NCBI GenBank assembly: GCA_964611875.1
Contig: CAZTBF010000002.1
Coordinates: 184,439-248,438 of the forward strand
DNA: 64,000 bases
From: an uncultured Gammaproteobacteria bacterium
GTDB taxonomy: Bacteria > Patescibacteriota > Patescibacteriia > UBA2169
Direction of reading: 5' to 3'
In this document: positions 3,838-52,589 of the stretch, piece after piece
Numbering within the stretch: position 1 is the stretch's first letter
Layout: every line of letters begins with the position of its first letter
Position numbers and translations under genes: made by a program
Notes under the pieces: generated by a model
Told to the model about the DNA's origin: nothing
The model's database searches: none
Seen by the model: the letters and a program-made list of their open reading frames with translations, nothing else

Positions 3838-5100
3838 ATGGATCAAAAAACAGCGCTGAAAATGTTGAAATCTGGTAAGAATGTGTTTCTCACGGGCCCT
3901 GCGGGGAGTGGGAAGACGTTTGTGTTGCGTGAGTTTATTGAGCATTTAAAAAAGAAGAATATTAAGCATGCGGTTACAGCTTCTACGGGTATTGCTGCCA
4001 CGCATTTGGATGGTACTACTATTCACTCATGGTCTGGCATTGGGGCGAAGGAGGTGCTGAAGGGGCGTGAGTTGCAAAAGCTTGCGGATAATGAGCACGT
4101 GGCTGAGCGGTTTTTGGCGTGTGATGTGTTGATTATTGATGAGATTTCTATGATTGATGCGCGTACGCTGAATCTGATTGATGAGGTGTGTATGGCGGTG
4201 AAGCGGAGTGTGCAACCGTTTGGTGGGTTGCAGGTTGTTGTGTGTGGTGATTTTTTTCAATTGCCTCCGGTGCGGAGTGATCGCTCGAAACCTATTTTGG
4301 CGTATCATGCGGATTCGTGGAAGCGGGCTCATTTTCGGGTGTGTTATTTGGAGGAGCAGTTTCGGCATGAGGATGAGGTGTTTATGCAGGTGTTGAATGA
4401 TATTCGGCATAACACTACTTCTTATGAAACCGAGGAATTGTTGCAATCGCGCTATTTGCAACCTGTTTCGAGTGAGGTGTATACGACCAAATTATTTGCT
4501 CGGAATGCGGATGCGGATCAGGTGAATGAGTTGGAGCTTGAGCGGCTCGCGGGGGATGCGTGTGTGTACCGTATGCGGACCAAGGGTAAAAAGGATTTGG
4601 TTTCTCAATTGCAAAAGGATTTTAACAAGGTGCCGAGGGAGTTGGTGTTGAAGGTGGGGGCGTTGGTTATGTTTACGAAGAACAATTTTGAGTTTGGGTA
4701 TGTGAATGGCACGCTTGGTGAGGTGGTGGATTTTTGGGAGGATGATGAGGAGGTGTTGTTGCCTGTTGTCCGGTTACGTTCGGGTAAGCGGATTCATGTT
4801 GGGTATAGTAGTTGGTCCATGGAGCATAATGATCAGGTGGTGGCTTCGCTTATTCAGGTGCCTGTTCGGCTTGCGTGGGCGATTACGATTCACAAATCGC
4901 AGGGGATGACGCTTGATACGGCTGAGATTAATTTGGGGAATACGTTTGGACATGGTATGGGGTATGTGGCGCTTTCACGGGTGCGTTCTTTGGATACGTT
5001 GAATCTGACTGGTTTTTCTCGGCGGGCGCTTTCTGTTGATCCTGAGGTTTCTGAGGTTGATGTGGTGTTTCGGCGGTTGTCTGAGGGGAAGAAAAGTTGA
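3838..5100 (+). CDS. PIF1/RecD-like SF1B DNA helicase
   Basis: Motifs GPAGSGKTF (Walker A), IIDEISM, GDFFQLPPV, HKSQGMT and YVALSRV. Confidence 0.85.
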   Translation: MDQKTALKMLKSGKNVFLTGPAGSGKTFVLREFIEHLKKKNIKHAVTASTGIAATHLDGTTIHSWSGIGAKEVLKGRELQKLADNEHVAERFLACDVLIIDEISMIDARTLNLIDEVCMAVKRSVQPFGGLQVVVCGDFFQLPPVRSDRSKPILAYHADSWKRAHFRVCYLEEQFRHEDEVFMQVLNDIRHNTTSYETEELLQSRYLQPVSSEVYTTKLFARNADADQVNELELERLAGDACVYRMRTKGKKDLVSQLQKDFNKVPRELVLKVGALVMFTKNNFEFGYVNGTLGEVVDFWEDDEEVLLPVVRLRSGKRIHVGYSSWSMEHNDQVVASLIQVPVRLAWAITIHKSQGMTLDTAEINLGNTFGHGMGYVALSRVRSLDTLNLTGFSRRALSVDPEVSEVDVVFRRLSEGKKS

Positions 5101-14621: not shown

Positions 14622-14795
14622 GCGTCAAAGTCGGAACTTCGTGCTGCGCGTATCCCGTGAGTACACGGTATCCGCTTCGCACTACGTCCGCCTTTTCCTT
14701 TCAAATTTCTGCTTAACTTCGGAGTACCTCAGCCCAAGCAGAAATTTGTAACAAACATTTCACTTAACCTTCGCTACGCTACGGCCCAAGTGAAA
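14622..14795 (-). promoter_or_regulatory. tRNA 5' leader module (divergent body) with two CTTGGGC..GTTAAG hairpins
   Basis: Hairpins at 14703-14747 and 14758-14795 match those at 52167, 52464 and 55785. It ends in TTTGACGC next to tRNA position -1. Confidence 0.6.
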
Positions 14796-15999: not shown

Positions 16000-16120
16000 C
16001 GTCATCTCGACCGTAGTGAATCGTTGTACTCAACGATGAACGGAGTGGAGAGATCCCTTTCATACAAATAGCACGTTCAAGGGATTCCTCGACTCGGGAG
16101 TACCCTCGCTCGGAATGACG
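16000..16120. repeat. MITE/REP-like element with CGTCATCTCGACCG / CGCTCGGAATGACG imperfect inverted termini
   Basis: About 75-80 percent identical by eye to 46165-46296 and has internal hairpins. Its minus strand contains GGGTACTCCCGAG. Confidence 0.7.
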
Positions 16121-21879: not shown

Positions 21880-21910
21880 CCCCGCCTCTTTCGAGAGGCG
21901 GGGTTTTGTT
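21880..21910 (+). terminator. Intrinsic terminator after pnp
   Basis: CCCCGCCTC-TTTCGA-GAGGCGGGG plus TTTTGTT. Confidence 0.8.
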
Positions 21911-21944
21911 TACACATGAAAATTGCGCATGGTACAATACGAGT

Positions 21945-23558
21945 ATGTTACGAAACAAGCCGAACAAATCAGTTGATCAATTGTTTTTAGGAGTAGGAGT
22001 AAACAAAAGTGTGATGTTAAGTCGTACACGACATCACTTTTTTATCGTGCCGTATGTGTTTGTTGCATGTGTTGTTCTTATGCTCTGTGCTTTGGTGTAT
22101 TGGTATCTTACCCAACCACGTGCGGTACTCGTTTCACACTTGCCACACACCACGCAGTGGTATGTTTCTGTTCCGCTTCCCAAGCAAGAAACGTTTATGC
22201 AACGCATGTTGTTTTGGAAAGAACCAACCACACGTGATATCACGGTGCGTGCTCTTGCCTCGCAACTTTCTTTTATGCAGATTGCTGGTCGTACTCTGCA
22301 AGAGTCAGTACTTCCATACAGTTCTGGACGCTACGAAATGGCACAACTGAATGATACGGATGTGGTATTTGCAACGACCATGCCACACTATACTGAATGG
22401 ATTGCGTCACTTGATATCCCAAAAGGAACAGAGGAAGGAACACTGCCTGAGGTATCAGGGTGGATAACCCTGCATACCCCTACACACGCATGGGTATGGA
22501 AAAAGGTAGGAGATCATGTGTATATAGCCAATAGCCCAGAAGCACTTGCATCAATAACTCAAAAGAGAAGCACCACCCTTGAAACGGTGTTGGACGCACC
22601 AAAACATACACAAGCAACACTGTATATTGCCTCAAAGAACGTATTACAGGATTCAGGCAATGCAATTGCGCAGTTATTTGGATCGAATACGACTTATCCG
22701 ATCAGTATTTTTGCAGTACACAAAGGAAAAAATGAAATTCGTTTGCTTACACATACCGGTCTTGAAGTGCCACAAACATATAGTGGTACCAGACCAGTAT
22801 TGCAAACATTAGTACATCTATCGGACGCCACATATGGTTTGTATAGCAAACAGGCTGGTAAAAGTTATGCTCGTTGGCAGACATATCTCAGTTCCGCAGA
22901 TTTAAACAGAAACCTTCGTATACAATCGTTATCAGAACAGTTGCATGGGCTGTATGCTTTCTCTATACGAGAGCCGATATTTGAGCTTCCGTCCGCAGTA
23001 TTTATGTATGCAGATGCTGCAAAAGATCGTACCGAATATCAGTGGGTATACTTGATAGATGATGTATCGAATAATGTTGCTACAAGTAGTATAGAGACTT
23101 TTGAGACTATTGGTTCCACACTTTTTGCACAGAGATATCCAGAGCAGCAACGTGTGTTACTCCCTGATGGTACCACTATGATAGAGAACATTGCAGATAC
23201 CAGTAGTGTTGTATGGGAACAAGGCACTATAGAACTGGCAGGTACCACCATTGCAGTGTCTCAATTGTTTGATACAGAAGGGAATCTGTTCATGCTTGTT
23301 GGTCGTGTTTCTGGTTTAGGTACTTTTATGAGTAACACCATGGAGAGAATAGAACATATTGTCTCACAATTTCAGGAATACGTTTTATACGATAGCAGTG
23401 ATACCGTATGTGATACGTCTCATGAGTCACTTTTTGAGTTTCAGATGAGTGGAAAGGTGCTTGCATCTACTCTTGGCGACACTTCCGTCGTAGAAAATAT
23501 CTTTGTGTATGAATCTGTGACCGGTGAAACTGAAGCATGCGTTGCATTACAAAAATAA
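21945..23558 (+). CDS. Membrane-anchored hypothetical protein
   Basis: ATG at 21945 lies 6 nt after an extended -10 (TGGTACAAT). One N-terminal TM helix, with no motif recognised otherwise. Confidence 0.7.
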   Translation: MLRNKPNKSVDQLFLGVGVNKSVMLSRTRHHFFIVPYVFVACVVLMLCALVYWYLTQPRAVLVSHLPHTTQWYVSVPLPKQETFMQRMLFWKEPTTRDITVRALASQLSFMQIAGRTLQESVLPYSSGRYEMAQLNDTDVVFATTMPHYTEWIASLDIPKGTEEGTLPEVSGWITLHTPTHAWVWKKVGDHVYIANSPEALASITQKRSTTLETVLDAPKHTQATLYIASKNVLQDSGNAIAQLFGSNTTYPISIFAVHKGKNEIRLLTHTGLEVPQTYSGTRPVLQTLVHLSDATYGLYSKQAGKSYARWQTYLSSADLNRNLRIQSLSEQLHGLYAFSIREPIFELPSAVFMYADAAKDRTEYQWVYLIDDVSNNVATSSIETFETIGSTLFAQRYPEQQRVLLPDGTTMIENIADTSSVVWEQGTIELAGTTIAVSQLFDTEGNLFMLVGRVSGLGTFMSNTMERIEHIVSQFQEYVLYDSSDTVCDTSHESLFEFQMSGKVLASTLGDTSVVENIFVYESVTGETEACVALQK

Positions 23559-23613
23559 TGCATCAAAAAAAAATTTTCTAAGTAAAAAATAAAAAAGTCT
23601 AGTAAAATGCATC

Positions 23614-23642
23614 TTGACTTTTGCGTTTAGGTATGCTAAAAT
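23614..23642 (+). promoter_or_regulatory. Sigma70-like promoter (TTGACT-17-TAAAAT)
   Basis: Near-consensus boxes with exact 17-nt spacer in a 540-bp ORF-poor gap. Confidence 0.65.
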
Positions 23643-23648
23643 GGATAT

Positions 23649-24086
23649 ATCAATGTTGAACTTTAACAACGCAAACGTTTAATCGCACTTTGGTGACACA
23701 CTTCTGTTCAGAAAATGCATATCGCGTTGTTATGAATACAGGTGTGTCTCTACTCTCTATCAAAAAAACATGAAGGCCGACCTTCATACAAAAACAAAAA
23801 TAAAAAACAAACGGTGTCTGGCAGGGAAACAAAAAAAACTTTCACAATCGGCGTACATCTATTCAGAGATGATACGACCACTCAGATGGTAGAGGCAATT
23901 AAACAAACATCTAAGTCGGAATGATGTATGACATTACTGTTTGATGTCACATTGCTGAGTTCTGTAGGCATGTGTATAGGGTACTCCTATATAGATGTCT
24001 ACGGAGCTCAGCTGCGCCAAGCAGTCCAAGGGCGTAGTTGAGCCACTTAATTAAAAAGCGGGCGTTCAATACGCCCTCTTTTTTTT
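23649..24086 (+). ncRNA. Candidate ~440-nt structured non-coding RNA (class unknown)
   Basis: Lies between the promoter and a hairpin plus T8 terminator (24057-24086). Hairpins at 23695-23748, 23770-23787, 23929-23949 and 23964-24002 are separated by A-rich linkers. There is no convincing ORF. Confidence 0.45.
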
Positions 24087-24097
24087 GAAAAAAAATT

Positions 24098-24490
24098 ATG
24101 TTACACTTTTTGCATATGACACACACACAAACACATCTTGATGATGCATTCATTGCACAGCAAAAAGAAAAACTTACCACCGAAAAAGAACGCCTTGTTC
24201 AGGAATTACAAAAAAGAGGTAAAGCAGACAGTAAGGATCCAACAAACTACACCGCAAGCTACCAAGAGTATGGTGATGATGAGGAATCAAACGCTGCTGA
24301 GTATGCAAACCATGAAACAGATATTGCCATTGTGAACGAACTTGAACAACAATTACAAAAAACAGTTGCAGCATTACAACGTATTGAGGATGGCACCTAT
24401 GGGTTAGACATTGATACTCAAGAACCGATTGAACAAAAAAGATTAGAGGCAGTACCTGCTGCAGAACATTGTATAAAAAAAGATGCGTAA
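24098..24490 (+). CDS. DksA/TraR-family-like protein lacking the C4 zinc-finger cysteines
   Basis: Coiled-coil N-terminus and C-terminal IEDGTYGLDIDTQEPIEQKRLEAVPAAEHCIKK, which parallels YGxCxxCGxxIxxxRLxAxPxAxxCxxC. Confidence 0.6.
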   Translation: MLHFLHMTHTQTHLDDAFIAQQKEKLTTEKERLVQELQKRGKADSKDPTNYTASYQEYGDDEESNAAEYANHETDIAIVNELEQQLQKTVAALQRIEDGTYGLDIDTQEPIEQKRLEAVPAAEHCIKKDA

Positions 24491-46164: not shown

Positions 46165-46296
46165 CGTCATCTCGACCGAAGTTCATCGTTGTACTCAACG
46201 ATGAACTGAGTGGAGAGATTCCTTATATATCAACAAGATTCCTCCTCTCGGGAGTACCCGCCTGTCGGCGAGGAATGGCACTCGGCCGGAATGACG
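46165..46296. repeat. Second copy of the CGTCATCTCGACCG..GGAATGACG MITE/REP-like element
   Basis: Aligns with 16000-16120, including GTTCATCGTTG-TACT-CAACGATGAAC and CTCGGGAGTACCC. Confidence 0.7.
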
Positions 46297-52463: not shown

Positions 52464-52589
52464 TTTTGTACTTGGGCCAAGGTACTCCGAGGTTAAGTAC
52501 AAAATGAAGAGGAATAGGCGCATGAAGGGTGGAGTGGTTTCCTAAGCGTAGCGTAGGAAAACACGGAACCCGCAATGCGACTATGACGC
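52464..52589 (+). promoter_or_regulatory. Conserved tRNA 5' leader module, copy 2
   Basis: Hairpin TTTTGTACTTGGGCCAAGGTACTCCGAGGTTAAGTACAAAA plus the conserved block. A possible TTGACG-17-TAGCAT promoter lies at 52412-52440. Confidence 0.6.

Follow-up and report, generated by a model that had tools for sequence, protein, structure and literature searches.

A large structured RNA encoded upstream of a dksA-like gene in a branch of the Patescibacteria

In a 64,000-nt stretch of contig CAZTBF010000002.1 (hereafter the window; coordinates are those of the window unless a locus is named), an open reading frame (ORF) of 550 codons (21906–23558) and a 130-codon ORF for a DksA-like protein (24098–24490) are separated by a gene-free stretch at positions 23559–24097. 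An initial annotation, made from the sequence alone, described a transcription unit in this stretch, with a promoter, a series of hairpins and an intrinsic terminator, and with no credible ORF. This raises the question whether the unit is an RNA gene in its own right, a leader of the genes that follow or a gene for a small protein, and whether such an RNA belongs to a known family. Here, we confirm that the unit is present as described, beyond what is expected by chance, and we interpret it as a new and independent gene that encodes an abundant structured non-coding RNA (ncRNA), conserved in a branch of the Patescibacteria, that matches no described family. In the following, L-numbers denote loci of homologues and relatives, X-numbers metatranscriptomes, and A3 and A4 alignments.

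Transcription unit, homologues and coding potential

The promoter on the forward strand (23614–23642) consists of the -35 element TTGACT, a spacer of 17 nt and a TG-extended -10 element TAAAAT, and scored 10/12 in a consensus scan. It is the best of the 8 promoter-like sites between 22500 and 25500, in agreement with the near-consensus promoter first annotated here, and the 29-mer TTGACTTTTGnnTTTAGnTnTGCTAnAAT at this position occurs once in the window and is conserved in the homologues. A terminator scan identified the intrinsic terminator at 24060–24086 (+; GGGCG-TTCAA-CGCCC followed by T8), which closes the unit ahead of the dksA-like gene, as had been proposed. The start of transcription is predicted at about 23649 (+), 7 nt past the -10 box, as a metatranscriptome contig of locus L095 begins at this distance from its -10 box and its start was transferred by alignment. 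The RNA would thus be approximately 440 nt long in the window; relatives that do not carry a 5′ insert have an RNA of 320–360 nt.

A genome scan with the DksA-like protein retrieved five metagenome-assembled genomes (MAGs; L004–L008), in which this protein is 48–53% identical. Their labels are one Parcubacteria group, two times only "bacterium" and two times Gammaproteobacteria, the latter probably wrong. In all five MAGs, the DNA upstream of dksA matches the non-coding stretch of the window (nhmmer, E 1e-14 to 1e-26), and the match includes the window promoter TTGACTTTTGnnTTTAGnTnTGCTAcAAT as a whole. Scanning metagenomes for the invariant word ACGGTGTCTGG-N(1–4)-GGGAAAC yielded 72 loci, 12 of which are true homologues, and look-ups through homologues of ComM added four further sequences. 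In total, this gave 17 distinct homologous sequences at the same genomic place (alignments A3 and A4; n = 13 for A3). The source names of the ComM relatives (Patescibacteria group, Parcubacteria group, Sungbacteria, Magasanikbacteria) place the group in the Patescibacteria. The element is therefore present in related genomes, with conservation of RNA and promoter at the nucleotide level, while the neighboring DksA-like protein is only about 50% identical. The label "uncultured Gammaproteobacteria" of L004 and L005 (CAZSGI010000007.1 and CAYOXH010000007.1) looks wrong, as these two MAGs have the RNA and the gene order in common with Patescibacteria loci, along with ComM clusters that are 99% identical.

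Expression was evident for homologues of the RNA. In a groundwater metatranscriptome (X26), a contig of 211 nt with a depth of 10.3 is 100% identical to positions 970–1150 of L095 (+ strand), and its start at L095 position 970 lies 7 nt past the -10 box TACAAT, which ends at 963. No contig of X26 was found on the upstream ORF, lspA or comM of L095. An RNA-derived contig thus covers the RNA alone and not its neighbors, in line with the discrete transcript that had been annotated, and shows that the RNA is expressed in nature well above the adjacent genes; contig-level evidence of this kind shows the presence and the 5′ limit of a transcript, and not its 3′ end. A 175-nt contig from a marine metatranscriptome contains the conserved core of another homologue, and no contig of L006 was found in the metatranscriptomes of Tara samples (X21–X23). 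The first 30 nt of the L095 contig (contig 1 of X26) are the reverse complement of 1121–1150 joined to position 970, which probably reflects snap-back cDNA or an assembly artefact at the 5′ end of the RNA. A second contig of X26 departs from the L095 locus at position 1156.

The stretch contains ORFs of 37–60 codons, such as one of 60 codons at 23742–23924 and one of 37 codons at 23928–24041, and the latter is annotated as a gene by a public gene caller on the Logan contigs L001 and L003. Among the 17 homologues we found no conserved ORF, since the position and frame of the open frames differ from sequence to sequence. The variable columns show no 3-periodicity (70/88, 59/83 and 64/85 for the three phases), and 141 of the 179 gap runs in the alignment (79%) are not multiples of 3. 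The publicly called 37-codon gene is therefore considered spurious. Conservation follows base pairs rather than codons, as substitutions in the helices are compensatory, and the earlier judgment that the unit holds no credible ORF was borne out. A small protein gene, encoded by either of the two ORFs above, is for these reasons an explanation that we consider practically discarded.

Conserved secondary structure

The + strand of 23648–24086 folds with -145.4 kcal/mol, compared to -96.6 ± 6.4 kcal/mol for dinucleotide shuffles (z = -7.6, with none of 100 shuffles as good); the - strand of the same region folds less strongly (z = -4.8). The architecture was derived from RNAalifold, from a search for covarying diagonals and from folds of single sequences, all of which converge, and was then tested explicitly on the 17 sequences (an earlier version on 13), with partner strands slid by 1–3 columns and 500 shuffles as controls. 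Over the whole structure, 91.5% of cells are standard pairs, versus 36–47% in the slid controls. Compensatory change was observed in 37 of the 65 pairs, a value that none of the 500 shuffles reached.

All features of the structure are encoded on the + strand. A 5′ domain is closed by helix P1, in which the 5′ strand (UCUCUACU.UCU, 23747–23758) pairs with the 3′ strand (AGA.GGUAGAGG, 23884–23895); 97% of cells are paired and CTCTACT is invariant. Within this domain, the hairpin P2 (23770–23787) corresponds to the ATGAAGG..CCTTCAT stem of the initial annotation and turned out to be a conserved helix, with compensatory change in 7 of its 7 pairs and a loop that reads ACCRAC in 17/17 sequences. 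It is followed by A-tract 1 (23788–23811), a single-stranded, G-free (YAAAAA)n linker of 23–30 nt that is present in 17/17 sequences and is composed of 77% A, 14% C, 9% U and 0.5% G (2 G in 426 nt). Tracts that resemble it come after P2 in the distant loci L009, L163, L164, L165 and L168 as well. Next is a conserved block (CGGUGUCUGG-CA-GGGAAAC, 23812–23830; CGGUGUCUGG-NN-GGGAAAC in the family), located between P2 and P3 and flanked by two A-tracts, in which GGTGTCTG and GGGAAACAAAAA do not vary among the 17 core sequences. A-tract 2 (23831–23839) is of a AAACAAAAAC type found in all core sequences, and both tracts are unpaired in the consensus fold. The domain is completed by hairpin P3 (23852–23876), with a conserved CAG in its loop and compensatory change in 7/7 pairs, which is also present in the minimum free energy (MFE) fold.

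The 5′ domain is connected to the remainder of the RNA by a pseudoknot (PK1), in which the P2 loop (CCGAC, 23777–23781; CCRAC in the family) pairs with GUCGG (23915–23919) inside a conserved AAGUYGGA. This pairing (CCRAC with GUYGG) is possible in 100% of cells, and at its middle position 12 sequences have G-C while 5 have A-U, the A-U cases being scattered over several subgroups. In the distant locus L168, PK1 is kept with other letters (UUUCGAC/GUCGAAA). The main pseudoknot of the RNA differs from the candidate first put forward, which involved the loop of an upstream GACACAC..GTGTGTC stem and positions 23665–23672; by eye, counterparts of that pairing with a different sequence are present in L091, L145 and L123. 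The stem itself (P0, 23695–23748) is real and appears in the MFE fold, but it is not a general feature of the family: it belongs to a lineage-variable 5′ extension of approximately 100 nt (23650–23748) that is carried by 5 of the 13 A3 sequences (the window, L091, L005, L145 and L123) and not by the other 8.

In the 3′ part, helix P6 is formed by CUGUUUG (23937–23943) and CAAGCAG (24018–24024), with 96.6% of cells paired. A further hairpin of the initial annotation, TGACAT..ATGTCA (23929–23949), did not hold up, as it occurs in the window only, without conservation in the family, and competes with P6. P6 encloses a long arm, P7/P8 (23954–24012), that has a conserved base (GCUGA/UCAGC) and a long hairpin of variable sequence with, in the window, the apex GGUACUCC; the hairpin previously noted at 23964–24002 is the tip of this conserved but variable arm. 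Folds of single sequences agree on the arm in 12/13 sequences. P7 is paired in 97.6% of cells with compensatory change in 4 of 5 pairs, and the base of P8 in 98.9% with 6 of 6. The terminator is part of a larger module, P9 (24029–24086), in which a long helix (24029–24036 with 24070–24077; 93.5% of cells paired, 6 of 11 pairs compensatory) and a short alternative hairpin (24060–24076; 80% paired) precede U8 at 24079–24086. The peripheral helices P0, P5 and P8 differ in length between sequences.

The tip of P8 carries the word GGTACTCC, which had been noted to recur in hairpins linked to tRNA genes. This was borne out, as the window contains 5 copies, versus 0.7 expected, each at the tip of a hairpin: 14721–14728 (-), 16097–16104 (-), 23980–23987 (+), 46251–46258 (-) and 52481–52488 (+). 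Two are located in homologous hairpins in tRNA spacers (His/Arg and Met/Met), and two in another repeated hairpin that contains GGGTACTCCCGAG. The copy inside the RNA lies on the variable, non-conserved apex of P8. The word may mark a loop particular to this species that is used by a protein or in processing.

Gene neighborhood and distant versions

In loci with sufficient flanking sequence, the gene order is PNPase, a protein of approximately 530 amino acids (aa) without a Pfam family, the RNA, the DksA-like gene, lspA, comM and, on the opposite strand, a LysM/M23 peptidase. L095 (1267–1707) and L106 (6766–7149) have no DksA-like gene, and the RNA immediately precedes lspA there, so that the family does not depend on a link with dksA.

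In most loci, the terminator is directly followed by a -10-like box, usually TG-extended (TGnTAnAAT-like), which in most core loci is situated 8–16 nt before the start codon. Examples are the window (TGtTACACT, 24099–24107, +; a consensus match by eye, outside the RNA), L095 (TGCTACAAT, approximately 1301–1309, with the ATG at 1318), L005, L006, L120, L091, L145, L123, L009, L164 and L166. In distant loci the box is further upstream, in spacers of 60–185 nt. With a candidate -10 box only 8–16 nt before the ATG, the downstream mRNAs look leaderless or nearly so, and in the window the position of the box makes ATG 24116 a better candidate than ATG 24098 for the start codon of the DksA-like gene. 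The protein encoded at 24098–24490 has lost the four zinc-finger cysteines, with one Cys left, and matches Pfam zf-dskA_traR below the cut-off (E = 1e-3); its relatives in L163 and L168 still match the family. The 550-aa protein encoded upstream of the RNA (21906–23558) has an N-terminal hydrophobic helix and no Pfam family. A word-indexed homologue search with this protein found only itself, and ComM was used instead. Proteins of 513–548 aa hold the same position in the core-family loci that were read, and a partial ORF is found there in L095. The upstream protein appears to be lineage-specific.

Loci reached through ComM homologues of 57–60% identity keep dksA-lspA-comM and have other genes upstream. 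In each of them, a gene-free gap of 420–970 nt precedes dksA. Each gap has a TTGACA/TATAAT promoter and a long terminator hairpin, and encodes an RNA with the same arrangement of elements. In this arrangement, P1 ends in a ..GGUAGAG-like sequence and is followed by P2, a tract rich in A and C (for example CAAAAACAAACAUCAAA), P3 and an extended 3′ arm. An nhmmer search with the hidden Markov model (HMM) of the family gave no match in L009 or L163–L166. A covariance model of the 5′ domain (R1) matched L009 (E = 1.4e-7), where PK1 is kept and the GGUGUCUGG block is not. It gave borderline matches for L163 (E = 0.02–0.035), L165 (E = 0.03–0.07) and L168 (E = 0.02–0.09; PK1 in the altered form given above), values that need caution, since antisense matches on core loci reach E ~0.1. 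R1 did not detect L164 and L166, for which the similarity is by eye only, and found nothing better than E ~2 in L167 and L169, controls without the cluster. The A-tracts are the single-stranded element that is best kept in the distant versions.

The distant loci further contain an array that resembles DnaA boxes, located 130–170 nt upstream of the RNA promoter and composed of TGTGGATAA, 3 nt, TGTGGAAAA, 11 nt and again TGTGGATAA, followed by a very AT-rich stretch. It was found in L163 (3251–3291), L164 (3447–3487), L165 (3420–3460), L166 (2913–2972) and L168 (2407–2480), and in a weak form in L009 (3284–3303); no such cluster is present in the core family or in the window. The array could be an origin of replication (oriC) or a DnaA-regulated promoter. 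In L165, a second small cluster of this type (TTATCCACA, TTATACACA, TGTGTATAA) is situated between lspA and comM (4919–4960), so that the two clusters would flank the RNA-dksA-lspA block.

Possible function, rival explanations and comparison with known RNAs

The explanation that we prefer, and hold to be somewhat better than even as a whole, is an independent gene for an abundant, stable and structured ncRNA that acts in trans and serves as an A-tract scaffold for a protein. The RNA would be transcribed from its own strong sigma-70 promoter, from about 23649 to the U-run at 24086. Its 5′ domain, closed by P1, would present P2, the G-free (YAAAAA)n tract, the CGGUGUCUGG..GGGAAAC block, the second A-tract and P3, and would be tied to the rest of the RNA by the pseudoknot between the P2 loop and the GUYGG just 3′ of P1; the 3′ part would form the long P6-P7-P8 arm and then the long, irregular terminator hairpin P9. 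We infer action in trans, and not as a leader of dksA-lspA-comM, because the next gene has a separate candidate promoter, the terminator looks constitutive, the RNA is large and its promoter resembles those of stable RNAs. In the weakest step of this mechanism, the folded scaffold may offer its A-tracts to a protein (together with the invariant block in the core family), either as a sponge or as a subunit of a ribonucleoprotein (RNP). In this reading, each tract spans about 18–25 nt and about six ARN triplets, a motif class bound by Hfq-type rings or by S1/KH-type proteins. Hfq, S1/KH proteins, RNA polymerase and the neighboring DksA-like protein are equally open as candidate partners. With respect to targets in trans, complements of the conserved block and of AAGUCGGA were sought in the window and 11 loci, and none is conserved in position.

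Several observations weigh against this explanation. No partner protein was found, and the six-frame translations of the 64-kb window contain no Hfq or CsrA signature. The expression evidence is contig-level, comes from homologues and not from this genome, and covers the 5′ half only. Conservation of the 22-nt block is confined to the core family (L009 does not keep it), which means that this block cannot be where the RNA functions in all lineages. The fold would suit a catalytic or other RNP role equally well. The 3′ part can also pair in other ways, as detailed below, with A:B strong in the window, L091, L005, L145 and L123, and the C:D hairpin also available. Lastly, the RNA keeps its position next to (dksA)-lspA-comM, and its shared orientation, also in loci with a different upstream neighbor, which likewise fits control in cis or another functional tie.

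This last point bears on a cis-acting leader or attenuator, in which the terminator would conditionally release transcription into dksA-lspA-comM, in a riboswitch-like or protein-dependent manner. The adjacency and shared orientation are seen in every locus, including lineages with a different upstream gene, and the RNA directly precedes lspA where dksA is missing. Moreover, three segments of the 3′ part are complementary to the 3′ strand of the terminator or to each other (A′, A, B, C and D). Segment A (CCAGCUGCG) can pair with A′, forming P7, or with B (CGCAGUUGG), and the terminator 3′ strand D can pair with B, forming P9, or with C, forming the short hairpin. In the L005 clade and in L157, changes in D are accompanied by changes in both B and C, and truncated folds of L091, L145 and L123 switch to A:B. 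Against such control stands that the alternative helices are less conserved, with 76 and 80% of cells paired compared to 94–98% for P7 and P9, and that both candidate folds leave D paired in front of the U-run, so that an anti-terminated state is not evident. An attenuation leader would have one state in which the terminator is unformed; here D pairs with B (93.5%) or with C (80%). For these reasons, a riboswitch-like switch between A′:A plus B:D and A:B plus C:D was rejected as the main model. In L007, L004 and L109, P9 is kept without a U-run and a second, constitutive-looking terminator, a hairpin with T7, is added, which argues that P9 is part of the body of the RNA. Furthermore, a candidate -10 box follows the terminator in most loci, the X26 contig covers the RNA and not lspA or comM, and 320–445 nt is larger than known riboswitch leaders. 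As the downstream genes carry their own candidate promoter, control by terminator read-through is unlikely to be the main role of the RNA, and we regard a cis-acting leader as an unlikely explanation overall.

An RNA that is catalytic or processes itself, or that belongs to a lineage-specific enzyme as its RNA subunit, with the invariant joining regions as active site, would account for the compact multi-helix fold, the long-range pseudoknot, the invariant unpaired nucleotides and the variable peripheral helices (P0, P5, P8), a pattern of ribozymes and of large RNP RNAs; large bacterial ncRNAs with complex folds are few, and several of them are catalytic. We nevertheless judge this improbable, with somewhat less room than for a leader, in view of the missing match to any ribozyme family, the loss of the invariant block in L009 and beyond, and the lack of an evident processing site, the sole RNA contig starting at the predicted transcription start. 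A resemblance to the hammerhead ribozyme (GAAAC and GUC words) was rejected, as there is no stem II. Another explanation is that a universal RNA (RNase P RNA, tmRNA, 6S RNA or SRP RNA) has diverged so far that standard models miss it. Housekeeping RNAs typically resemble this one in size, abundance, strong promoter, pseudoknots and A-rich joiners; Rfam located none of the four elsewhere in the 64-kb window, and the DksA-like RNA polymerase factor next door is thematically near 6S RNA or Ms1. Nonetheless, Rfam 15 detected only five tRNAs in the window; a search of 23400–24250 (851 nt) at E ≤ 10 gave miRNA and snoRNA models far below threshold as best matches, no family matched in the six related loci L156, L161 and L163–L166, and ARAGORN found no tmRNA in the window or in 7 loci. 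These results agree with the inspection by eye in the initial annotation, which had found no match to RNase P, tmRNA, SRP, 6S or the cores of common riboswitches. Since the features that define each of these RNAs fail as well (see below), a diverged universal RNA is very improbable.

We return to the preferred explanation of a trans-acting, structured RNA. Because the defining features of known RNAs fail and a search of the full-text literature yielded no description of this RNA, we would place it as a new family within a kind that is already known. Few large bacterial RNAs have complex folds supported by covariation, and those whose roles have been solved are ribozymes, RNP scaffolds or global regulators. 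To our knowledge, Patescibacteria have tiny genomes with few recognizable regulators, and almost none of their RNAs have been studied experimentally. That an RNA of 330–445 nt is maintained by strong selection, has a near-consensus promoter and shows signs of high expression suggests an important uncharted function in these organisms. We consider it an even chance that the RNA represents a new class of large, pseudoknotted and highly expressed ncRNA of a broad branch of the Patescibacteria (the candidate phyla radiation, CPR), with a function that has no counterpart among described bacterial RNAs; examples would be a ribozyme or RNP particular to the lineage, or a protein-sequestering regulator with global reach. 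Such a class would be tied to dksA-lspA-comM and, in the distant loci, to a DnaA-box array, the latter perhaps being the ancestral state. The alignment, the tested pseudoknotted structure, the predicted start and the covariance model make the RNA searchable in all CPR genomes, and its constant location next to a DksA-like polymerase factor (and, for the distant relatives, next to DnaA boxes) suggests hypotheses on the control of transcription or replication.

Compared with the universal RNAs, tmRNA has a similar length, a pseudoknot and A-rich single strands; unlike tmRNA, the RNA described here has no tRNA-like acceptor/T-arm domain, no conserved tag reading frame and unpaired 5′ and 3′ ends, which leave no acceptor-like stem. 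RNase P RNA is likewise of similar length, with a long-range pseudoknot, A-rich joiners and, as is probable here, housekeeping expression, but the order of the helices in our RNA is incompatible with P1–P4, and the conserved regions CR-I (GGAAAGUCC) to CR-V (ACAGAA..GGCUUA) are absent by eye. 6S RNA and Ms1 share the abundance and stability of the RNA and a strong promoter of its own, and the RNA is found here beside a DksA-like factor of the polymerase-binding type; they differ in that our RNA has a multi-domain fold with unpaired ends, no rod with a central bubble and no Rfam match. With SRP (4.5S) RNA there is no model match, the apex of P8 is variable in length and sequence, and a GGAA-capped helix 8 was not seen by eye. 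A resemblance in the words CUGUUU and AAGCAG was judged coincidental, because these pair with each other around a variable arm.

The large RNAs OLE, ROOL, GOLLD, raiA and HEARO are closer in character, being longer than 300 nt, with many covariation-supported helices, restricted to one lineage each, abundant in RNA data and with a function that cannot be read from the sequence. Our RNA has no Rfam match to them and differs in architecture, host phylum and neighborhood, (dksA)-lspA-comM. CrcZ and CrcY are protein-sequestering small RNAs of Pseudomonas of approximately 400 nt that trap Hfq/Crc through AAnAAnAA motifs. Like the RNA described here, they are independent genes with their own promoter and an intrinsic terminator, and they carry A-rich AAnAAnAA motifs between stable hairpins; our RNA has 1–6 overlapping matches to this motif per tract and two tracts per RNA. 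In contrast to CrcZ/CrcY, it has a sigma-70 extended -10 promoter that is not RpoN/CbrB-dependent, a covariation-supported pseudoknot and a closed 5′ domain, occurs in a different phylum and shows no homology in sequence or structure (Rfam). Of the features that define CrcZ, only the A-rich motif is shared; sequestration of the CrcZ type is the functional analogy that we favor.

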